Below, piece after piece: positions 11,235 through 39,622 of a stretch of DNA of 64,000 nucleotides. Source of the stretch: Methanotrichaceae archaeon. GTDB lineage: Archaea > Halobacteriota > Methanosarcinia > Methanotrichales > Methanotrichaceae. The notes beneath the pieces are model-generated. The model saw only the letters and a list, made by a program, of their open reading frames with translations. It ran no database searches and had not been told where the DNA came from. The stretch covers positions 34,560-98,559 of the forward strand of contig CAVVKN010000021.1 of the NCBI GenBank assembly GCA_963748825.1, in the 5' to 3' direction. The position numbers were made by a program, and so were the translations under genes. Numbering within the stretch: the first letter of the stretch is position 1; each line of letters starts with the position of its first letter.

Positions 11235-13229
11235 ATGCTTAGAATTCAGATGATCATCTTCATGGCCTTGCTCATATGGCTTATGCCAATTGAAGGAGCA
11301 AGAACGTATATCGTTGACGACAGCGGCTTTGCTAATTTTAATACTATCCAAGAGGCCGTTGTTGCTGCCAGTAATGGAGATACCATATACATCAAGCCGG
11401 GAGAGTACAATGAAGAGGTAATCCTGAACAGGAGCCTGACGCTAATGCCTCTCACCGGCGAGAACGGGCCTATAATCCTCAAAGGAGATGGCCTGGAGAC
11501 GGGGATCACAATAACCGCAGAGGGCTGCTCTCTGCAGGGCTTGACTATACAAGACTTTGCCGGGCCAGCAATATATGTTCAATCCAGCCGAAACTCCATC
11601 AAGAAAAACGTGTTTAAAAACGCCAATCCGGCCATACTGGTGCGCGGTTCGCACGAGAACACTATTGCCGGAAACACAATAATTGACAGTCAGGGGGCAG
11701 TGGCCCTCTGGGAGAACTCCAGCGATAACCTGGTTTCAGAAAACGATATCTTGGGATGCAATGTATCCATTATCGTACGGGAAGCTGCGAAAAATGAAAT
11801 CCTCAGCAACAAAATATCTGATGCTTACTGGGGCATCTGGCTTGAAAATGCTGCAAGCTGCCAGATCGAAAGCAACGATGTAAAAAGCAAAAGGTTCGGC
11901 ATCTGGCTTTTAAACAGCAGCACCATCAATGTTTCCCAAAATAAAGTTCGCATCGACAATTCTGCCTCCAGCATCACGAACGGCATAAATCTCGCGAATG
12001 CCAGCGGAGCTCTATTGCAGAGCAATGAAATCAATGGTGGTGCAATCGGGCTGCTAATTTCGAGCAGCAAGAACAGCAGAATGATAGATAACTCAATTTC
12101 CGGCAGCACAAATGCCATCTTTATCAAGGACTCATACTCACAAGAGCTGAAGAATAACCGCATCAGTGCAGCGGAATACGGCATAAGAATGGAAAATTCC
12201 AGCAAAAATTCCCTAATTCAAAATAGGATAGAAAACGGCACCATTGGCTTTGAACTGGGCATGAGCCGACAGAACAATATTTCCGAAAACCAGCTCTCCG
12301 GCATAACGGACACGGCTGTGCAGATTTCATCCTCTAACGAAAACACCCTCTCCGGCAATCAGATCGCTGATAGTCCTAAAGGAATCATCTTATTGGAATC
12401 ATCCGCCAATCGACTGACGGCTAATCGCTTCCAGAATGTGGAGTGGAGCCTTTACGCAGAGGCTGAGACCAAGGAGGGCTTTAATAATTCCATAGATGAA
12501 TCCAACGTAGTGGATTCTGTCCCCATAGTCTATCTCTTTGGCCGTTTTGGCGGGCAGATTCAGGATAGGGATATCGCTCATCTCACTTTAGCATACTGTG
12601 AAAATGTCACAGTAAAGAATACTGCCATCACCAACGATGCCGTATTTCTCTTCGATTCAAAGAAAAACAGGATCCAGGAGAACAACATATCCGGGAGCTT
12701 TGGCATGCGTCTCGTGCAGTCCGATGAAAATGAGATATCAGGCAACCGCCTGCTGGGCAATAAATTTAGCGGCATGTTCCTGTATGCCTCGGATTTGAAT
12801 CAAATTGCAGGAAATGATGCCTCGCGAAACAGCCAGAACGGCATATCGCTCCTATCCTGCAACCAGAACATCATTCGCGACAATGTGGTAGATGAAAACG
12901 CTGCCACAGGTATCTGGCTAAACCTTTCCCATGATAACCAGGTATATCAGAATAACATCAGTCGCAATCCATTGGGTCTGCAGGTAATGCTCTCCACAGG
13001 AAACAAAATATTCCACAATAACTTCCTCGGCAATAAGGAGCATTCGCAAGATCTAGGCGGCAACAATAGTTGGGACAAAGGCAATGTCACAGGCGGCAAC
13101 TACTGGGAGGGTCACGTGGCCAAAGGCAATCCCAGCCAGAATTGGCCAAGGATGATCAAAGGCGGAAGCATGCTGGACGGCTATCCCTTCCAGGATGAGA
13201 GCGGCTGGCTGAGGGCAGCCGCCGCTTGA
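11235..13229 (+). CDS. NosD/CASH parallel beta-helix surface protein
   Basis: Signal peptide, TIQEAV..A..GDTIYIKPGEY, many SxxNxIxxN repeats, GGNYW. Confidence 0.9.
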   Translation: MLRIQMIIFMALLIWLMPIEGARTYIVDDSGFANFNTIQEAVVAASNGDTIYIKPGEYNEEVILNRSLTLMPLTGENGPIILKGDGLETGITITAEGCSLQGLTIQDFAGPAIYVQSSRNSIKKNVFKNANPAILVRGSHENTIAGNTIIDSQGAVALWENSSDNLVSENDILGCNVSIIVREAAKNEILSNKISDAYWGIWLENAASCQIESNDVKSKRFGIWLLNSSTINVSQNKVRIDNSASSITNGINLANASGALLQSNEINGGAIGLLISSSKNSRMIDNSISGSTNAIFIKDSYSQELKNNRISAAEYGIRMENSSKNSLIQNRIENGTIGFELGMSRQNNISENQLSGITDTAVQISSSNENTLSGNQIADSPKGIILLESSANRLTANRFQNVEWSLYAEAETKEGFNNSIDESNVVDSVPIVYLFGRFGGQIQDRDIAHLTLAYCENVTVKNTAITNDAVFLFDSKKNRIQENNISGSFGMRLVQSDENEISGNRLLGNKFSGMFLYASDLNQIAGNDASRNSQNGISLLSCNQNIIRDNVVDENAATGIWLNLSHDNQVYQNNISRNPLGLQVMLSTGNKIFHNNFLGNKEHSQDLGGNNSWDKGNVTGGNYWEGHVAKGNPSQNWPRMIKGGSMLDGYPFQDESGWLRAAAA

Positions 13230-13270
13230 AGCCGCAATACTTAAGATGATGAAGAAAGAAGGAGATAGAT

Positions 13271-13444
13271 ATGGCAAAGAATAAGAATGAAGGCAGCGGT
13301 CTTCAGTCATCAGCAGGCCTCATGAGGTACTTCGAGGCTGATGATACTGCAATAAAGCTCAATCCTAAGATGGTGCTCGGAGCCTGTATAGGTGCAGGTG
13401 CAGTAGTAATGGGACTTAATATCGCCTTTGGCCTCTGGCCTTAG
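13271..13444 (+). CDS. secG: Preprotein translocase subunit Sec61beta
   Basis: 57-aa ORF absent from the track: GLQSSAGLMRYFEAD..IKLNP plus TM helix; GGAG RBS. Confidence 0.92.
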   Translation: MAKNKNEGSGLQSSAGLMRYFEADDTAIKLNPKMVLGACIGAGAVVMGLNIAFGLWP

Positions 13445-13609
13445 GCAATAATGCTTTTTCATCCACTGGATTTCCCAGGATTAGCTTCCTTATTTTGCAC
13501 TTAGCACACCTGATGAGGTCGCAGCCCAAGGAACTGCCAAGCCGTGCCTAGCTTTGTCTTTGAACTTTGCCCTTTTGTAGCTTGTATTTGTAGCTTGCAA
13601 GGGGAATCT

Positions 13610-13921
13610 TCATCGAGGCGATGAAGTCTCGGCTGCCATCTCATCGACCTCTTTTGCTCCCTTTGCCAGCAGAGCATCTTCGTCTCCTGTGAGAATTGAG
13701 ATCAGCCGGGCAAACTCACCTGCATGAACCCGTTCCTCATTGGCGATATCTATCAGCACCTTCTTGGCGAGAGGGTTGTCCGTGGCCTCGGCGTGAGCCA
13801 TGTAGAGGTGAACTGCTTCATGCTCTGCGGCCAGATCAAGTCGGATGGCTCGGATCAGTTCTTGCATGGTCAGCTTTCTTTCTGGCACTTTACCGCTGAA
13901 TGGGTTAAGAAACTCTGGCAT
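13610..13921 (-). CDS. Short ferritin-like (EncFtn/rubrerythrin-like) protein
   Basis: RAIRLDLAAEHEAVHLY and IANEERVHAGEF (ExxH) diiron half-sites. Confidence 0.85.
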   Translation of the reverse strand: MPEFLNPFSGKVPERKLTMQELIRAIRLDLAAEHEAVHLYMAHAEATDNPLAKKVLIDIANEERVHAGEFARLISILTGDEDALLAKGAKEVDEMAAETSSPR

Positions 13922-14179
13922 TATTTTATCTCCTCGCTTGCGCTGCCTGGGAGTGGATTATTCATTGTAGGTTTCGGATCCATTTCCGCCAGGCTCAATG
14001 ATTTGCCTATAATAGAAATAGCCCAAAGTAAATATGTCTTTTGGGGTGTGGTTTTGGCTTTCCCAAGGCTCTATTAAGGCTCTATTGCCTCCTTTATGGG
14101 GTAGAAGGAAATGAGTAATAATAAATAAAAACGTGTTGTGTCCAATCAGCTTGATGCTCAAACCAGCCCCTGTTTTCCG

Positions 14180-14797
14180 CTACTTTATCTGCTTGATTTT
14201 AACCGAATTAATAAATCGTTCTGTGGCTTCTTGACTATAGGTGGAGAGAATCAATCCTACTGCCGTGGATGCCAGAACGCCTCCCGGTCGATCCAGATGA
14301 TATTCTACAGGATAGACCGCAACGTAGACCGGCTCACTCATTGGACACTTTAGGCCACTGGCAAATATCCCTGATTGACCGTCTATCACTCTCTCAGCTA
14401 TATTGATCTCTTTGCATACTTTGGATTTGGTGAGGGTACCATTGGCAAGGGCTTTCAAGCTGGATTGGTTGATAAGAGATACATCGTTTTTGGAGTACAT
14501 TATGACCGAGACCTTCAGGATCTTGGCCTTATCAGATGCCGACGCCAGTGTCAAAGCATCTGTCGCGATGGCCACTTTTCCGGAGGCGCTGTCTCCATGC
14601 GACACGCTGCTTTTGTACTCATCCATCTCCGACCAGTTGAAGCTTACCTTCCACTTGCCGCTGTCCTCTGAGACGGAGGTGACGGACAATTCATCCATCA
14701 TAAAGCCATGCCCCTGCATGGTAAGCAAGAGTGCCATGCCAAGTGCCAGACCGAGCATGAAAAGCTTTGAGCAATATTTGTCCCTCACCAATAACAC
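14180..14797 (-). CDS. Secreted hypothetical protein
   Basis: Hydrophobic N-terminal leader; contiguous with the upstream ORF. Confidence 0.7.
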   Translation of the reverse strand: MLLVRDKYCSKLFMLGLALGMALLLTMQGHGFMMDELSVTSVSEDSGKWKVSFNWSEMDEYKSSVSHGDSASGKVAIATDALTLASASDKAKILKVSVIMYSKNDVSLINQSSLKALANGTLTKSKVCKEINIAERVIDGQSGIFASGLKCPMSEPVYVAVYPVEYHLDRPGGVLASTAVGLILSTYSQEATERFINSVKIKQIK

Positions 14798-24444: not shown

Positions 24445-25032
24445 TTACTTTCCTTTTCCGTCGTGGGCTCTGATGCCGGGCCTGGTCTTCTCAGTGCCGA
24501 AGCCCTTGTGCCTCTGGCCTCTGCCCTTGCGACCGGCTGAGGTTTTGCCGCGTACTGCTCTACCGCGATGAACATCATTGCAGACCCAGTTAAGGTTCTT
24601 ATCATTCATGATGGAGGGAGCGCACGGGTCCACTAAAATGACCTCGTAGAACTTCTGCTTGCCGTCCTCTGCCACCCAGTAAGAGTTAAGGACTTCCATG
24701 TTGCGGTACCGCCTTCCGGCCCTTTCCTCGGCGATCCTCTGAATGGACTTGCCCATGCTGATGGCGTTCACGCCCATCTTGCTGGTCTTTCTGTTTCTCT
24801 CGTAACGGGACTTCTTGCGGCCACCGCGTCTTACCTTGACACGTGCCACGATAATGCCCTGCTTGGCCTTGTAGCCGAGAGCGCGCGCTCTGTCCAGGCG
24901 AGTGGGCCTCTCGATCCTCTGCACGGTGCTTTCCTGGCGCCAGGCCTTGAGCCTTTCCTGCCGCAGTGCGCCCACGTATCCCTCTCGGGGAGAGGACCAG
25001 GCATCACTGATATAACCGTAAAAAGACTTCAT
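24445..25032 (-). CDS. rpl15e: 50S ribosomal protein L15e
   Basis: [39 protein letters not shown]. Confidence 0.98.
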
Positions 25033-25047
25033 TTCTTTTCACCTTTA

Positions 25048-25075
25048 CCGGTTCGACCAAATGGTCACATTCCGG
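25048..25075 (-). promoter_or_regulatory. Putative eL15 leader hairpin in the rpl15e 5' UTR
   Basis: CCGG-AATGT-GACC-ATTT-GGTC-GAA-CCGG just upstream of the AGGTGA RBS; TATA-like TTTATCT near 25103-25109. Confidence 0.65.
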
Positions 25076-25077
25076 AA

Positions 25078-25833
25078 CTAGAGGGGGGAAGAGGTGATAG
25101 GAGATAAAGGTTTGGGAGATGGTAACGCATTAGGGTTCGACGGGGATCTTAAGGCATTTAGAAATTCGTCTCGATGTTCAAAAATCAATCTATCTAATTC
25201 CCAGCCCTCTATTCCCGCTTCTTTTGCAATATTCAAATAGAATTTTTCATGATCCGAGTACCTTTTTAGATTCAGCCCCAACTCGCTTGATATGGACCGG
25301 ATGCGTGAATCGAGCGCTATCTTCTCATGGAAAAAAGGATGATAGCAATCCATCATAATATTGTTCGCATACTTCGGACCTATTCCCGGAAAATCGTCCA
25401 GGAATTGCGTCATTTCTGCTGCGCATTTTTTATTGAGTAGTATTTCATTGGCCTGCTCTAATCCACCCATCTCTTCAATTTTCTCAAAGCATAGCGCAAG
25501 CATCGGAGCTTTTTTCTTATAGTAGTGTACCTTTGCATCTTTCATGATTTGCCGCAGCCTATTCACACGGTCTTCATTGCTGAGGTTCTTCAGTTCAGCA
25601 TAAGTGATCTGTTGATTTTTATTTTTGTCTGTGACCATATCTTCGTTTCTGCTTATGCCGCCCCAAGTTGAATAACTCACTAATAACTCATGCCACAAGA
25701 AATCAGGTCTCTTGAGTATAGCATGTCCTTTTTCCTTCTTGCACTCCAATTCACCTTTATATTTGTTTTGAAGATTTTTGGCCATTGCCACTAAAGTCTC
25801 AACTTGTTGATCCGTTGCATCAGCAATTGTCAT
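25078..25833 (-). CDS. HhH-GPD superfamily DNA glycosylase-like protein
   Basis: FPGIGPKYANNI helix-hairpin-helix, IALDSRI catalytic-Asp region, WELDRLIF; AT-rich. Confidence 0.7.
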   Translation of the reverse strand: MTIADATDQQVETLVAMAKNLQNKYKGELECKKEKGHAILKRPDFLWHELLVSYSTWGGISRNEDMVTDKNKNQQITYAELKNLSNEDRVNRLRQIMKDAKVHYYKKKAPMLALCFEKIEEMGGLEQANEILLNKKCAAEMTQFLDDFPGIGPKYANNIMMDCYHPFFHEKIALDSRIRSISSELGLNLKRYSDHEKFYLNIAKEAGIEGWELDRLIFEHRDEFLNALRSPSNPNALPSPKPLSPITSSPL

Positions 25834-25941
25834 GAAGTTCACTTCATATCGCAAAGCTTTAAAATGTTTTCATGAATGGCCTTAATGCAATCACTTTAAC
25901 TTTTCATATCTGTATGGGCAATGCAACAGAGAGGATAAAAA

Positions 25942-26676
25942 ATGAAGGTTGCCATAACTACAGTCGGGTGCAAAGGGCCTGAAGATGAATCCAAAAATGA
26001 AGGACGACTAAAAGCCGGAAAACTGGCGATAGCAAAGGCGAAATCATTGGGTGCTGATATATTAGTACTTCCCGGGGGATTCGTAGTTGGTAATGACTCT
26101 AGATCAAGGCAACGAATATCGGATGCACTCATAGATGAAGCTCGTAGCTTAGAGCTTGCGGTGGTTTTTGGCGTGGACGATCATAGTTGGCCCCAAGCAT
26201 ATGGATATGCCTGGAGTCCAGTTGACAAAATGGCATATAGTTGGGAACAAAGATCATCTACCAGACACTGGAATAAACGGAGTGAGCAGCCAATTACACT
26301 AACCGACAATCAATGGGAAGCCAAACTGAAGAGTTACGATGATGTTCGTCTTCTTACGACAGAGGGTGGGGTTGTTGGTGTTCTGCTATGTGGCGAACTT
26401 TTCAATGAACGCATAAGGGATGCATTGATAAAAAGGAGGCCTAAGATTGTTGTTGATCTCATTCATAGAGGCCATGGCTTCAGATCAACGGGCGCAATGA
26501 AGAGGCTCTGTCATTATGGCATTACATCGGCTTGTTCTGCACACGTACAGAAAGTTGGTGCTATGAAGCGCTGCTATATTCCAGGTAAAGGAAATGATGG
26601 AAATGCATCCACCATAGGATTAGATGACAGAATCGAAGGACCACCAAGGATAGAACTCAAGCTATTTGAGGTTTGA
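25942..26676 (+). CDS. Carbon-nitrogen hydrolase (nitrilase-fold)-like protein with atypical active site
   Basis: MKVAI, GADILVLPGG (canonical PE), GVLLCGELF nucleophile motif. Confidence 0.65.
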   Translation: MKVAITTVGCKGPEDESKNEGRLKAGKLAIAKAKSLGADILVLPGGFVVGNDSRSRQRISDALIDEARSLELAVVFGVDDHSWPQAYGYAWSPVDKMAYSWEQRSSTRHWNKRSEQPITLTDNQWEAKLKSYDDVRLLTTEGGVVGVLLCGELFNERIRDALIKRRPKIVVDLIHRGHGFRSTGAMKRLCHYGITSACSAHVQKVGAMKRCYIPGKGNDGNASTIGLDDRIEGPPRIELKLFEV

Positions 26677-26681
26677 AGGAA

Positions 26682-26904
26682 GTCTCGAACCTTCGTTAAG
26701 GGGTCGTCTCTGTGCGTCCTCCGTGCGCTCTGTGCCTCTGTGGTGGGATCGTTAGTTGTTCTGTTATAATTATCGGCTAATAGTAATGGCGAGATGCAGC
26801 ATCTTCCAAAATCCCGCGCCCGGAAAAGCACCCAGCCAAGCCCACAGCAGGCTACCCACGCGGGCACAAGCGTCCCCGCACGAGCGCACGCATGCGGGGC
26901 CGAT
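26682..26904. repeat. Repeat family A, copy 1
   Basis: Near-identical to 27659-27884 and related to 28906-29104. Confidence 0.92.
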
Positions 26905-26998
26905 CCTTTTCTCGTGTTGCCAAGGTGTGGAATCGCATCTTTGTACGCGCAGACATCATTGAGTAGTATTATATGCAAATAGGACTAAGTAATTCCTG

Positions 26999-27229
26999 AT
27001 GAAACGCCTTTATGACTACACAATAGTGCTCCGTCCTGAAGACAACGGCACCTATGCAGCCTACGTCCCTGCTATTCCAGGCTGCCACTCCTGGGGCCAA
27101 ACACCCGAAGAGGCACAATCTGAGCTGATAAACGTCTTCGAGATGATCCTGGAAGAGTACAACGAAGAAGGTCGCATGCTTCCGGAAGATATCGATGTGA
27201 AGGCCGTTCATGCCTGCCAAAGCTCGTGA
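26999..27229 (+). CDS. hicB: HicB family antitoxin
   Basis: YAAYVPAIPGCHSWGQTPEEA. Confidence 0.9.
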   Translation: MKRLYDYTIVLRPEDNGTYAAYVPAIPGCHSWGQTPEEAQSELINVFEMILEEYNEEGRMLPEDIDVKAVHACQSS

Positions 27230-27425
27230 CCTGCAAAAGGTCGCAAAGAAGCTCGGATTTCATATGGTGAGGCAGAAAGGAAGCCACGCCAGATGGAAGC
27301 ATCCCGATGGTCGAGCGACAACGATTCCTATCCACGGCAATAGCGAAATAGGCAACTGGCTGTTCTACGAAATTCTCAAGCAGTTGGACATAACTGAAGA
27401 GGATTTCTTGAAGCATCTCGGATAG
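27210..27425 (+). CDS. hicA: HicA family toxin
   Basis: LGF..VRQKGSHARWKHPDGRATTIPIH..EI. Confidence 0.92.
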   Translation: MPAKARDLQKVAKKLGFHMVRQKGSHARWKHPDGRATTIPIHGNSEIGNWLFYEILKQLDITEEDFLKHLG

Positions 27426-27461
27426 CATCAATTCGAAAGACATATTTCAACCTGGCATCGG

Positions 27462-27651
27462 GGCCCAACCGGCCTCCTGCCCTCCAGAAAGACCGCCGCA
27501 TGCATCCCGGCCCGCCTGGCGAGCAGCGCCGCAGTCCCGGATGGCCCGGCCCTCGGACAACGGACAAGATGCCCAGCCGGAACCCGGTCAAAGATGCTGC
27601 CCACAGGCTGTCGGACACTGCTTCCGGTAGCCCGCAAGGATCGTCAAGCTG
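27462..27651. repeat. Repeat family B, copy 1
   Basis: Shares GGCGAGCAGCGCCGCAGTC.CGGATGGCCCGGCCCTCGG and an identical 26-mer end with 28587-28779. Confidence 0.9.
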
Positions 27652-27658
27652 GAGAACG

Positions 27659-27884
27659 GTCCCGAACCTTTGTTATAGGGAGTCGTCTCTGTGCGTCCTC
27701 CGTGCGCTCTGTGCCTCTGTGGTGGGATCGTTAGTTGTTCTGTTATAATTATCGGCTAATAGTAATGGCGAGATGCAGCATCTTCCAAATCCCGCGCCCG
27801 GAAAAGCACCCAGTCAAGCCCACGGGCGGCTGCCCATGCGGGCAGCAGCGCCCCCCCCGCACGAGCGCACGCACATGGGCCGAT
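27659..27884. repeat. Repeat family A, copy 2
   Basis: About 105 bp identical to copy 1 from GTCGTCTCTGTG to CATCTTCCAAA. Confidence 0.92.
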
Positions 27885-27953
27885 GTCTACTGCAAAATGG
27901 TTCTCCGCCCAAGGGTTAAACACTTAAATAAAAAGAGAGCAACATATGTTCCC

Positions 27954-28538
27954 ATGCAAAGGCTAACCGCTTACATCTCCGGCAAGGTCCAGAAGACCGG
28001 CTACAGAGCCAGAGTTCTCACCATTGCTCGTGACTTCGGTCTGAAGGGTTACGTGCAGAACCTGGATGATGGGCGAGTCAAGGTGGTAGCGGAGGGCGAA
28101 ATCGGTGATCTGGAGAGCTTGCTCGGGGCCTTGGATATCAAGAACACAATTATCAATGTGGTTGATATCAAGAGCGAGTATTCTTCTGCAACAGGGGATT
28201 TTGACAGCTTCGTCAAGGTTGTATCCGGAGGCGAGACGGATCAGAGACTCGATGTGGCTGCAGAATTGCTCACGAAGCTTATCGTAGTAAACGAAAAGAT
28301 ATTAGATGAAATCCGGGCGACTCGCCAGGAATTGACGGAGACCCATAAAGAATTGACGGCTACCCATCAAGAACTGACGGGGACTCACGAAGACCTTAAT
28401 GGGGCGATTAATGAGTCGCGTGATGCCATTGTAAACGAGATTAGAGAGCTTCGCATTGATTTAAAGGAAAACCTGGAAGGCAGGTTGATAAGAATAGAAT
28501 CCGACGTCTCCCAAATAAAAGCAAAGATCGCCCTCTAG
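27954..28538 (+). CDS. Acylphosphatase domain with coiled-coil tail
   Basis: SGKVQKTGYR, GYVQNLDDGRV; 21-bp heptad repeats at 28317-28400. Confidence 0.88.
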   Translation: MQRLTAYISGKVQKTGYRARVLTIARDFGLKGYVQNLDDGRVKVVAEGEIGDLESLLGALDIKNTIINVVDIKSEYSSATGDFDSFVKVVSGGETDQRLDVAAELLTKLIVVNEKILDEIRATRQELTETHKELTATHQELTGTHEDLNGAINESRDAIVNEIRELRIDLKENLEGRLIRIESDVSQIKAKIAL

Positions 28539-28586
28539 TTATTTATTTTAGTGATCTGCAGCTTTCCTTAAGCGCCTCCTGATCCC

Positions 28587-28779
28587 GGCCCGCCCGGCCT
28601 CCTTCCCCCCGAAGAGACGGTCGCATGCATCCGGTCCCACCAGGCGAGCAGCGCCGCAGTCTCGGATGGCCCGGCCCTCGGGCAACGGAACAGAAGCGCA
28701 ATCGGTATCCCGCCAACGATGCCGCACGAGCGACGGGCTGCCGGGCTTCTTCTGGTAGCCCGCAAGGATCGTCAAGCTG
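28587..28779. repeat. Repeat family B, copy 2
   Basis: Homologous to 27462-27651. Confidence 0.9.
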
Positions 28780-28819
28780 AAGACTGCATCGAAATCAGCT
28801 AAAACGTCTTACGATTATT

Positions 28820-28952
28820 AACCGCAGAGTCGCAGAGTTCGCAGAGCCGTTCAATCTGCTTATTTGTCAACACTTGAAAAAAAGGTGCTCTGCTTCTGAG
28901 CAATAGTCGTCTCCGTCCGTTCGTCCTCTGCGTGCTCTGCGCCTCTGCGGTT
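28820..28952. repeat. Long inverted repeat built from CGCAGAG units
   Basis: 27-bp arms at 28820-28846 and 28926-28952 pair at 24/27 positions; 79-bp loop. Confidence 0.88.
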
Positions 28953-29104
28953 CGATCCGCAGTTGTTAGGTTATAATTATATGCTAATAGTAATAGCGAA
29001 ATGCCACCGCGTCCCAAATCTTGCGCCCGGAAAAACGCCCTGCCAAGCCCACGGGCAGCTTCCCACGCGGGCACAAGCGCCCCCCGCACGAACGCACGCA
29101 TGCG
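28906..29104. repeat. Repeat family A, copy 3 (diverged)
   Basis: GTTATAATTAT...CTAATAGTAAT core, GCGCCCGGAAAA, CCAAGCCCAC, CCCACGCGGGCACAAGCG. Confidence 0.88.
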
Positions 29105-29217
29105 AATGGCCTGCGGCCCGGCAACCGCCCCTGCATCAGCATCTTTGCCAGCTTCGATGTGCTTCAAAAAGCAATAGCGTAAGGAATATTTCCATTACCT
29201 CTCTATAGAAGCCCCAT

Positions 29218-29436
29218 ATGTTTGCCGAGTATATTGAGGCGGCTCTAGAAAGGGCTGTTTACAAAACCATCGAAGATGACGGTCCTATCTTTGTTTCAGT
29301 ACCCGAGCTTCCGGGCGCCTGGGCTGCGGGCAAAACTGTTGAAGAGGCCTGCAAAGAGCTTATCTCGGTTATTGACGGCTGGATCGCTCTTAGGCTTCGG
29401 ATGGTACGGTCGATTCCATCAATCGGCGGCCACTGA
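29218..29436 (+). CDS. hicB: HicB family antitoxin (orphan)
   Basis: EYIEAAL..A.Y, VPELPGAWAAGKTVEEA..EL..VIDGWI; no HicA follows. Confidence 0.85.
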   Translation: MFAEYIEAALERAVYKTIEDDGPIFVSVPELPGAWAAGKTVEEACKELISVIDGWIALRLRMVRSIPSIGGH

Positions 29437-29608
29437 ACGCCTCGCCGATTGGCTTCCCTTAGTTCTTGCAGCACAAAACACGGCAAACTGTTTATATAAT
29501 CGTTATAGATGAGTGCTAATTGGAGGGAAAGGCTATTAGTGCATCATCCACTATTCTGAGAAAGCTCGGCCAAAGACGCCTGTCCTGGCCGATGGAGCTC
29601 TGAAAGAA

Positions 29609-29851
29609 TTGGCTAAGAAAGCGAAGCATAGTGATGCCATCATGACCGGCATTCTCGTTACCAAGTTCAAGATGGGCCAGATCGATGTCGAGGATCTGGT
29701 GCAGATGGCAGCCGATGCCACCAAGGTGGAGAGGTGCTCGGCAGCAAAGAAGGTGCTGGAGGCGGTGAGGGATTCGCCCGACTTTCTGCGCCAAGAAGCT
29801 TTGCTGGCAAACAGCAATGACATCATTATCACAGAATCGAAAATAGAGTAA
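29609..29851 (+). CDS. Hypothetical protein, possibly 5'-frameshifted
   Basis: Protein-like helical sequence, no recognised motif. Confidence 0.4.
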   Translation: MAKKAKHSDAIMTGILVTKFKMGQIDVEDLVQMAADATKVERCSAAKKVLEAVRDSPDFLRQEALLANSNDIIITESKIE

Positions 29852-29876
29852 TTAGTCTAAAATTTGGGGAATTAAT

Positions 29877-30725
29877 TTGAAAACAACGATAGGCGGAGAA
29901 ATAGTTGAGTTTAACTTGACCAAGCTATTGCCATTGCTTGTGATTTTTGGAATTGTTATAGTTGTGTTCTTTGGTCCAATTTATACTATTGATGCAACAG
30001 AACGTGGTGTGCTTCTGACCTGGGGAAAAGTCAGTGACAAATCCATCGATCCAGGAATACATTTCCGAATTCCAGTCATGCAGACCGTTGAGCGTTTCAA
30101 TGTAAAAACTCAGAAGTATGAAGCAGAAGGGACAGCAGCTTCTAAGGATTTGCAGACGGTTAACACCAAGGTGGCTGTAATTTACCATCTGAGGCCGGAA
30201 AGCGTGCCGAAGATCTATGCAGACCTGGGACAGTTTTACGGTGAGAGCATAATTCAGCCCACCGTGCAAGAAGTGCTGAAGGCAAGCGCGGCAAGATTTA
30301 GCGCAGAACAATTGATCACAAACCGGTCAACAGTGGCCAGTACCATCCAGGATTTGTTATATCAGAGACTTCATCCCTATGGAATTATTGTAGAGTCAAC
30401 CGCAATCACTGACTTTAAGTTCAGTGAGTCTTTTACGCAGGCCATCGAAGCAAAGGTGACAGCTTCGCAACAGATGCTCAAGTCGGAAACTGATCTAAAG
30501 CGCATTCAGGTTGAGGCACAGCAAAAAGTCACTCAGGCACAAGCAGAAGCAGACGCATTAAATTTGCAGAAGCAGGCCATTACTCCAGAACTGATTGAAC
30601 TGCGCAAAGTTGAGATGCAAACCAAAGCCGTTGAGAAGTGGGATGGCAAATTGCCCATGTACACTGGTGGAGCTATCCCCTTTGTGGATATAGCATCGAT
30701 AACATCAGCGGCTAAAACAGCGTAG
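29877..30725 (+). CDS. Prohibitin/SPFH (band 7) family protein
   Basis: N-terminal TM, PGIHFRIP, ASKDLQ, F..AIEAK, EKWDGKLP. Confidence 0.92.
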   Translation: MKTTIGGEIVEFNLTKLLPLLVIFGIVIVVFFGPIYTIDATERGVLLTWGKVSDKSIDPGIHFRIPVMQTVERFNVKTQKYEAEGTAASKDLQTVNTKVAVIYHLRPESVPKIYADLGQFYGESIIQPTVQEVLKASAARFSAEQLITNRSTVASTIQDLLYQRLHPYGIIVESTAITDFKFSESFTQAIEAKVTASQQMLKSETDLKRIQVEAQQKVTQAQAEADALNLQKQAITPELIELRKVEMQTKAVEKWDGKLPMYTGGAIPFVDIASITSAAKTA

Positions 30726-31145
30726 CTGCTTGTTACCATCATGTATGAAAATTAAAAAAAACCCGGGCATTAAAGCATGTGTTTGAGCCCGGATCGAATC
30801 TGAAGAAGGCATCGACTGCCAGAAGGAGGGCCTCCTGCTACTCTAAACTAGTTATCCGTAATGAGAGTATAGCTGGTGGGCGGCCCATTTTTTGATTTGC
30901 GACATATCGCGAGCTCTCCAAAGTTGCTTAGCTATGGATGGCGATTCATTGAAGAACCCCCCTCCTCTTAACAACTAAAAAGTATTATCAATGGACTTGG
31001 AATGTTTAATTTACAGAAATTTCGGCACACTACCCTATTGGTTCTAACGGTACCATCAATTGCGCGGATGAATCTAAGAAAAAATAGAACGGAAAGCTTA
31101 AACAATATGGACCTGTATCTCCTCTTTCGTAGGAGATGAATCTAA

Positions 31146-39180: not shown

Positions 39181-39622
39181 AAAAGCAGGCAGAAGACCCG
39201 CTCCCTTTAGGGGGCGGGATGCCGTACGCTCTCTAGTTACTTTCGCGTCGCGCTACTAAACTATATATCCATTCTGGCACAAACCATTATTTGCAATAAA
39301 AACTGCCTACAAGTTCAGGATGTATCCTAATCGGCTACAAGAAGTCGCATTAGATCTAACCTGGATACTTGCAGACATACCTCTCAGAAATGCTCCCTGT
39401 GTGGTATAATAGTTCCTAAGACGCTGGCAGATCGAGTCCATCATTGCCCTAACGGTGGCTTGGAGATTGACAGGGACATCAATGCCGGCTTGAACATTCT
39501 CACCCTCGGACTGAGGGAAGTGCCTACCAAGATCTGACCCCCACCGTTGAGCAAACTGTTAAAGCAAGTTAGATCGATGACGTAGGAAGCCCTGCCCCTT
39601 CAGGGTCAAGGGAGGAAGTCAC
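39179..39622 (+). mobile_element. tnpB: Non-autonomous IS200/IS605 element (internally deleted tnpB, both ends retained)
   Basis: Left-end hairpin CCCGCTCCCTTTAGGGGGCGGG; KTAYKFRMYP N-terminus fused to TSQKCSLCG..DRDINAGLNIL; right-end hairpin ending GTCAC. Confidence 0.88.

Follow-up and report, generated by a model that had tools for sequence, protein, structure and literature searches.

The question raised by positions 26,682 to 29,436 of a 64,000-nucleotide (nt) stretch of DNA from a Methanotrichaceae archaeon, called the window in the following, is why small cargo genes are bracketed there again and again by conserved non-coding repeats. An original prediction made from this DNA had described two repeat families, A and B, as the possible ends of a cassette-like unit of the order A-cargo-B. 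We find instead that A and B are neither two families nor two 'ends' but the 5' and the 3' part of one element, which we name E. The observation is real and wider than first seen, as it is genus-wide in Methanothrix, and taken from the sequences it would represent a repeat-delimited cassette array whose mechanism we infer below.

The two parts come together in uninterrupted copies of E, in which A runs directly into B and which can be aligned from end to end. Such copies are present at other loci of the assembly holding the window (G000; G codes denote genomes, C codes contigs and L codes fetched loci) and in other Methanothrix genomes. E is non-coding, about 375–420 bp long and consists from 5' to 3' of a block S, a block T and a GC-rich body. 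S, an about 40-nt piece of A, is made of four CTCTGTGCG-like sub-repeats, while T is AT-rich, TATA-like and the most conserved block of E with the core TATAATTATC..CTAATAGTAA. The body of about 300 nt has 68% GC in a genome of 51% GC and finishes near ..GGTAGC.CGCAAGGATCG.., close to a 26-mer shared by both B copies of the window. A thus corresponds to the first about 160–220 positions of E and B to the rest. Using a hidden Markov model (HMM) built from eight uninterrupted copies and searched with nhmmer, we found that A and B of the window map to successive parts of E, so that each 'cassette' of the window looks like one E split by its cargo. The A tails past model position ~152 (26816-26904 in A1 and the equivalents in the other copies) belong to a diverged subtype of the body segment that comes next, and by eye they reach about position 215 and hence overlap the start of B.

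All five repeats (A1, A2, A3, B1 and B2) were found at the positions given earlier and 0 of 100 shuffles reproduced them. The identity between A1 and A2 is 92% over 216 nt, and that of A3 to either of them is about 80% (alignment and BLAST), with a longest unbroken identity between A1 and A2, counted by hand, of about 105–108 nt, where about 105 bp had been claimed. B1 and B2 are 79.5% identical across 195 nt, and the 26-mer at their ends occurs at exactly two sites of the window (27626-27651 and 28754-28779) and had no match in 100 shuffles. The AT-rich core of A is present three times in the window with zero occurrences expected. The hairpin described between B2 and A3 is genuine as well (28805-28965, DNA fold of -33.5 kcal/mol, z = -4.86, equalled by 0 of 200 shuffles), and the identities proposed for the cargo hold by Pfam, namely hicB, hicA, an acylphosphatase with a coiled-coil-like half and a UPF0150/HicB-like gene. 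The array is therefore composed of the following features, including a fragment of a relative of E, named P:

26682..26904, + strand: A1, 5' part of E (E model 19-152 at 26705-26833 by nhmmer; alignment of A1, A2 and A3)
26700-26752, 26753-26815 and 26816-26904, + strand: S, T and GC-rich tail of A1, in our own definition of the blocks
26999..27425, + strand: cargo 1, hicB (26999-27229) and hicA (27210-27425)
27444..27655, + strand: B1, 3' part of E (model 165-372), terminating in the shared 26-mer
27659..27884, + strand: A2, 5' part of the next E (model 16-166 at 27681-27818, then GC-rich tail)
27954..28538, + strand: cargo 2, acylphosphatase-domain protein with a C-terminal coiled-coil-like half (Pfam Acylphosphatase 1e-17)
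28569..28784, + strand: B2, 3' part of E (model 163-373)
28809..28881, + strand: P fragment, reverse S arm and spacer (nhmmer P[78-150])
28891..29107, + strand: A3, 5' part of the third E (model 2-220)
29218..29436, + strand: cargo 3, solitary UPF0150/HicB-like antitoxin gene (Pfam UPF0150 5.8e-23)

A1 begins about 6 nt past the stop codon of a gene for a 244-aa protein. The products of cargo 1 match HicB_lk_antitox (6.3e-9) and HicA_toxin (1.1e-19), and TATA-like boxes lie about 28 nt ahead of the hicB ATG (26967-26975) and about 25 nt ahead of the ATG of cargo 2 (27924-27934), for which the listed open reading frame (ORF) starts at 27735 and extends back into A2. From these boxes the cargo modules of the window appear to have their own promoters, and a distance of about 25–28 nt to the start codon fits the TATA-box spacing expected for archaeal promoters. 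The hairpin is formed by the P fragment and the S block of A3, which pair as an inverted repeat (I1, 27 nt, 89% complementary). Cargo 3 has a counterpart in G015 that is mostly deleted, with a remnant left (row L023_2990p). As proposed earlier, the repeats are non-coding and no fragments of a coding gene: no frame is open throughout all E copies, and E shows no period-3 variation (lag-3 autocorrelation of 0.05; of 176 gap runs, 162 have a length not divisible by 3).

How far does E extend beyond the window? Separate BLAST searches of A and B against the whole assembly gave long matches only at few other loci, all of them clusters of small toxin–antitoxin (TA) genes. The E model matches 61 sites in G000, about 40 of which are sites of S or P, and copies with the E body are limited to about five loci. 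Pieces of S are scattered across many contigs of G000 on both strands, often as close inverted pairs (BLAST). P is palindromic, with inverted S arms of about 40 nt, and consists of S, a loop, a reverse S and a conserved spacer. G000 has about 40 sites of P, which are frequently in tandem. Homology to the T block of E is visible in its loop and right arm. The S arms of P are inverted, and E carries an S block at its 5' end only. The copies are old and nested, which obscures any target duplications, and none of the loci examined held an insertion sequence (IS) with S ends. In two other genomes P/S repeats punctuate tens of kb, mostly in one orientation (G005:C1 ~737-766 kb, L130 and L131; G012:C1 ~223-312 kb, L132 and L133), and these regions hold TA pairs, duplicated fragments of sugar-metabolism genes (judged by N-terminal sequence), many other kinds of genes and several insertion sequences (IS200/605, IS110, IS21 and DDE_Tnp_1).

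The spacer from B1 to A2 matched 20 of 24 Methanothrix genomes and none of 16 that belong to other genera of the class, with several of the genomes lacking an E match being incomplete and their absence of E hence not demonstrated. Searching one genome per prokaryotic species for the exact T-block pattern revealed 95 stretches. Among the 80 loci listed, 44 come from records named Methanothrix, Methanotrichaceae, Methanosaeta or 'Methanosarcinales archaeon', including all nine loci with multiple matches, and the remaining 36 are single matches from unrelated, mostly AT-rich organisms. E was not found in plasmid and phage collections, and a scan of IMG/VR with the T pattern gave 25 single matches, with none of the 25 loci fitting the E or P model. 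No description of E or P repeats was found in a literature search with most subscription journals outside its full-text coverage.

Our map of E covers 19 non-redundant loci of 11 genomes, 12 smaller loci having been dropped (eight lying inside larger fetched loci; L010, L012, L013 and L015 were left out). Within each locus the copies are co-oriented without exception (121 of 121 matches of at least 90 nt). Of 136 E matches 74 begin at the 5' end of the element and 53 extend to its 3' end; the interior break points are dispersed over model positions ~100-320 with a mild excess of starts at 140-180. There are also 62 neighbouring E pairs without a gene between them, and in 37 of these a clean 3' end leads into a 5' start. 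The cargo amounts to 88 ORFs from 17 loci in 39 sequence clusters with a median length of 91.5 aa. The fixed polarity of the original prediction is only partly retained, as the repeats keep a strict order and orientation but the genes do not: in the window all three cargoes are co-oriented with E, and over the 17 loci 46 ORFs are co-oriented and 42 anti-oriented.

Representatives of 22 of the 39 clusters were scanned with Pfam, eight of them without a match, and the scanned cargo belongs mostly to type II TA systems (HicA, HicB/UPF0150, HepT, MNT, several PIN, Phd-like, TumE, DUF4258 and MqsA-like proteins). The acylphosphatase protein is a further cargo family beside these TA components, and the cassette of the window that encodes it is also found in G015 (three copies), G001 and G067. 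Varied housekeeping genes flank the arrays (leucyl-tRNA synthetase, ilv genes, an ammonium transporter), and so do defence-type genes (SIR2-like, OLD-family ATPase, AAA_21). Acylphosphatase-domain proteins, several of them with a long coiled-coil-like tail, are recurrent cargo of E/P arrays in at least five genomes (four were assigned by Pfam and the others from their N-terminal sequence):

window, 27954-28538
L023, 814-1638 and 2223-2684
L024, 1485-2069
L134, 1788-2303 and 2696-3238
L130, 4152-4538
L131, 10172-10771
L132, 16670-17290
L133, 3005-3667

In G015 and G001 an acylphosphatase gene directly follows hicBA within one cassette. A two-gene cassette for proteins of 96 aa and 173 aa without Pfam match was seen in G000:C18 (L001, 6005-6834) and also in E arrays of G012 and G013; it could encode an undescribed TA or defence pair.

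In order to see what happens at one place in different species, the array of the window can be followed by its neighbours. Upstream are the genes for the RNase P p30 subunit, ribosomal protein L15e and two unnamed proteins, and downstream an 80-aa gene is followed by the gene for a Band-7/SPFH protein. L15e and Band-7 are found on a single contig in G000, G067, G024 and G061, and in G015 the locus is split across two contigs. The cargo does vary at this orthologous locus, including an empty version, as a cassette platform had been predicted to do: the five species have three, at least five, one or zero cassettes, or no E.

G000: two unnamed genes and three cassettes
G015: at least five cassettes, including three with acylphosphatase and two of the hicBA type
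G067: an acylphosphatase-like gene and one acylphosphatase cassette
G024: a full E and then the 5' part of E, no cargo (empty E-E)
G061: a 1900-aa PKD/beta-propeller protein, no E

By sequence, the first E begins at the same junction behind the 244-aa gene in G000 and G024, and an E copy of G015 lies within about 30 nt of a 244-aa-like gene, which is consistent with the same junction as judged from the map. The last 5' part of E sits before the 80-aa gene in G000, G015, G024 and G067. As the first and the last E junction are kept between species, the content has changed between fixed borders. The two genes between L15e and the array (window 25078-26676) are variable as well. The first encodes 258 aa without Pfam match and the 244-aa gene has only a sub-threshold CN_hydrolase match and a low coding score; in G067 and G061 the interval has neither of them, and G024 has a truncated 244-aa gene. 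Other arrays differ in a similar manner. Those on G000 C18 and G012 C3 have two cassettes in common, one with vapBC and one with the 96-aa gene, in different order and with other cassettes between them, and hicBA of the window type is present in the G012 array in another genomic setting, with homology (82%) restricted to ~26954-27420, that is promoter and genes.

The flanks of the cargo offer a view on how such changes might come about. For 46 cargo intervals we compared y, the last model position of E before the cargo, with x, the first one after it, and y was larger than x in 38 of them. In 28 of these 38 a segment of the E body, tens to more than 200 nt long, is present as a direct duplicate on either side of the cargo, and six of the eight exceptions are cassettes of the window type, in which the model under-reads the diverged A tail. 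Judged by their letters, such duplicated flanks are the pattern that a single-crossover integration of an E-bearing circle into an intact E would leave, and they would also supply the repeats for deleting the cargo and restoring an intact E, as in G024. In addition, E copies are mosaic: S blocks occur that are hybrids between two subtypes, and of 1830 pairs of E copies 45 appear recombinant, their switch points being distributed over the element, with 19 of the 45 just before T.

We therefore favour, with a probability of roughly 0.45, a reading in which E copies serve as portable homology by which cassettes are gained, lost and shuffled, and in which addictive TA cargo is what survives between direct repeats. 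A crossover between directly repeated E segments would eject a cassette and restore an intact E, and the reverse event of the Campbell type, or an unequal exchange between arrays, would insert or reorder cassettes. The host recombination system would act on E in these steps, so that an integron-like gain, loss and shuffling might be achieved without a dedicated integrase. Addictive TA modules would persist in such arrays because genes between direct repeats are prone to deletion, and the same argument on persistence has been made for the TA cassettes of bacterial superintegrons.

Several observations weigh against this reading. In 10 of the 38 intervals the cargo is merely followed by a complete new E from its 5' end, and the number 38 of 46 itself includes related genomes with inherited, non-independent cassettes and depends on nhmmer alignment ends, which are fuzzy. 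The homologous hicBA cargo of G000 and G012 is surrounded by different E break points, and thus cargo and flanks are not always one fixed travelling unit. The paralogous acylphosphatase cassettes of G015 are only 82–94% identical, so no recent move is visible, and their comparison gave no sharp cassette ends. No recombination event was caught in the metagenome contigs of public sequencing runs, all of which are available as contigs and none of which has more than 0.32 of the sampled words. Finally, homologous recombination alone leaves unexplained the conservation of T, the strict co-orientation and the arrival of E between housekeeping genes. As E shares the S arm and the T block with the MITE-like P (MITE, miniature inverted-repeat transposable element), a transposition route for E that is not among the steps listed above is likely.

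The contigs of the runs do show joints, some that skip from A2 to A3 and others that 'go back' from B2 to B1 by 1078 and 1125. We do not take them as a sign of circles or of deletions, since contigs of related copies that switch between homologous A or B copies can explain them. Contigs from RNA runs cover hicB and the acylphosphatase gene, and bins in the B body have little or no cover, which proves nothing.

Whether an enzyme might do the work was followed through the recombinases and insertion sequences. In agreement with the original prediction no recombinase adjoins the array of the window. G000 has two Phage_integrase matches, only on C20 and C5 and neither on the contig of the window, and its sole Y1_Tnp match is a broken gene on C12. 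TnpB has eight matches in G000, only one of them near S repeats, and IS110 transposases have seven, and the IS110 end motif was not found in G000. In a Pfam survey of the flanks, covering 92 ORFs of at least 120 aa in or within 5 kb of the arrays at 18 loci, the 25 most frequent of 82 families include a single transposase family, TnpB, with two truncated ORFs that are both from G012, and no tyrosine recombinase family. Taking these searches (Y1_Tnp, Phage_integrase, TnpB and IS110) and the flank survey together, no transposase or integrase gene stands consistently beside the arrays. An intact IS200/605 element in G005 is about 3.2 kb away from the nearest P copy and has no E or P match at its ends.

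Some further mobile elements were seen on the way. About 10 kb downstream of the array there is a short TnpB fragment (window 39373-39498; Cas12f1-like TNB domain) with an open frame of 68 aa, and four IS110-family transposase matches stand in tandem on one strand within less than 6 kb (G000:C12:109643-115533). In L130 (G005:C1) an IS110-family element with DEDD_Tnp_IS110 and Transposase_20 (12996-14508) splits an S repeat between ...GTGACTC and TGTGG..., and a metagenome contig matches A2 of the window up to 27717, the equivalent spot, and then continues with the same 30 letters as the end of this element. As both junctions are at the equivalent spot of S, this insertion sequence seems to target the S repeat specifically.

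A more far-reaching proposal is that E arrays are an independently evolved cassette platform of archaea, which we put forward only tentatively. The unstructured repeat of about 400 bp would then be the recombination site, used by host recombination or by a recombinase acting in trans at T, and self-promoted small modules, TA pairs among them, would be excised as circles and reinserted into any E within or between Methanothrix genomes.

It is rather unlikely, in our view, that E and P are nothing but selfish non-autonomous transposable elements, similar to MITEs or to palindrome-associated transposable elements (PATEs) of the IS200/IS605 type, which pile up in permissive accessory islands with A-cargo-B as a by-product of insertion and decay and with a passive link to TA genes. 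The inverted S arms of P, its about 40 sites in G000 and its frequent tandem arrangement would be explained in this way, as would S and T being common to E and P, the P clusters over tens of kb amid many other kinds of genes in G005 and G012 and the stacking of E without cargo. Strict co-orientation would fit the strand-specific single-strand transposition that is a property of IS200/IS605, and the regions also gather IS110, IS21, IS4/5-like and IS200/605 elements. However, an autonomous partner with S ends was not found in the loci examined, the only Y1 transposase gene of G000 is broken and just one of the eight TnpB loci is near S. E has a single S arm, its bodies are confined to about five loci of G000 instead of being dispersed, and flanking duplications of tens to more than 200 nt are unlike the traces of transposition.

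We regard it as improbable that E is the attachment site of a site-specific cassette system with its recombinase elsewhere in the genome, acting in trans (Xer-like or novel, at T) as for attC clusters without an integrase. Direct co-oriented repeats between cassettes and one locus with varying cassette content would be expected from it, and cargo in either orientation with its own promoters resembles the TA cassettes of bacterial chromosomal integrons. Moreover, T is the most conserved block and by eye consists of two 11-nt arms, matching at 8 of 11 positions, around a 6-nt centre. Two 11-nt arms around a 6-nt centre are the layout described for Xer sites (PMC2958812). Yet for AT-rich DNA the dyad in T is a weak one, with a centre not clearly less conserved than the arms, the interior break points are spread over model positions ~100-320, and the switch points are not focused on T, as besides the 19 of 45 just before it the others are spread. 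No recombinase recurs near the 18 loci. The spacer from B1 to A2 (535 nt, folded as DNA) gave z = 0.66, with 74 of 100 shuffles folding as well, and the tail of A1 gave z = 0.05 as a single strand, both being no better than shuffles; an attC-like hairpin was not found in this spacer as judged by fold and Rfam, without a dedicated attC model, and the ends of E have no hairpin.

The same folds bear on a role in regulation. Furthermore, no conserved RNA structure was found by RNAalifold with 13 near-full E copies (433 columns, -6.87 kcal/mol), where the covariation term was unfavourable (+1.02) and compensatory changes occurred in four of 26 pairs, and Rfam had 0 matches in window 25000-31000, with none at E up to an E-value of 1. 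It is thus highly improbable that E is a regulatory or RNA unit selected beside TA genes (with T as promoter of a GC-rich small RNA, a leader or an antisense RNA, or with E as terminator or insulator, the array being its repeated use): its T block does resemble an archaeal TATA region and is the most conserved one, and a body this rich in GC stands out where the genome has 51% GC, but next to the weak fold (-6.9 kcal/mol), the z values of 0.05 and 0.66 and the missing Rfam match, the cargo points either way from T at random (46 to 42) and carries TATA-like boxes of its own, and many copies are truncated or stacked without genes.

Exchange between E copies, as favoured here, would matter for several reasons. 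The movement of TA and small accessory genes in archaea is largely unknown beyond plasmids, viruses and the integrons that were recently described in archaea. Methanothrix, a methanogen that uses acetate, is of global importance, and E arranges its TA genes in arrays that change between species. The arrays hence offer a concrete and testable route of gene gain and loss, and they might illustrate in nature the idea that a position in deletion-prone repeat arrays is what makes addictive modules persist.

When compared to known systems, E and P are similar to repetitive extragenic palindromic (REP) sequences and bacterial interspersed mosaic elements (BIMEs), to Correia elements and to archaeal MITEs and PATEs, in that they are short, non-coding, genus-restricted, multi-copy and intergenic. 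P has long inverted arms and forms a strong hairpin, and the insertion of an IS110-family element into the S arm is a further likeness to REP sequences, as some IS110/IS1111 members target them. In contrast, E is one-armed with a 300-bp GC-rich body, clustered and co-oriented, and delimits variable cassettes, and a matching transposase or RAYT-like gene was not found in our searches. A PATE of the IS200/IS605 type is also different, as G000 has only the broken Y1_Tnp and the ends of E lack a hairpin. The superintegron of Vibrio shares with E arrays the enrichment of TA modules in a deletion-prone region of direct repeats, but in E arrays, which are known here from their sequence alone, the repeats themselves are the sole candidate substrate of recombination.

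The closest comparison is that to integrons and to clusters of attC sites lacking integron-integrases (CALINs). The original description of a cassette-like array with the logic of an integron but without integrase, attC, IS or CRISPR hallmarks holds. An IntI-type tyrosine recombinase, which is not required of a CALIN, was not found near E arrays in the searches given above. E is about 400 bp long and has no hairpin fold, and is thereby several times longer than attC with its roughly 60–150 bp. Unlike integrons, E also stacks without cargo, breaks at many interior positions and flanks its cargo with long duplications of the repeat, and its cassettes lack a common orientation (46 versus 42). The main text of a survey of archaeal integrons (PMC9668308), as far as accessible, describes them as mostly CALINs, with TA proteins making up 10.5% of the annotated cassette proteins, and does not mention Methanothrix, Methanosaeta or any name beginning with Methanosarcin, taxa being possibly listed in its data tables. 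As in integrons and CALINs, the repeats of E arrays are co-oriented and stand between small cassettes, most of them a single operon and many of them TA modules, and relatives differ in how many cassettes they have and in which order; as in CALINs, no integrase adjoins the arrays. If the reading as a cassette platform is true, E arrays would be a functional analogue of integrons that evolved independently.

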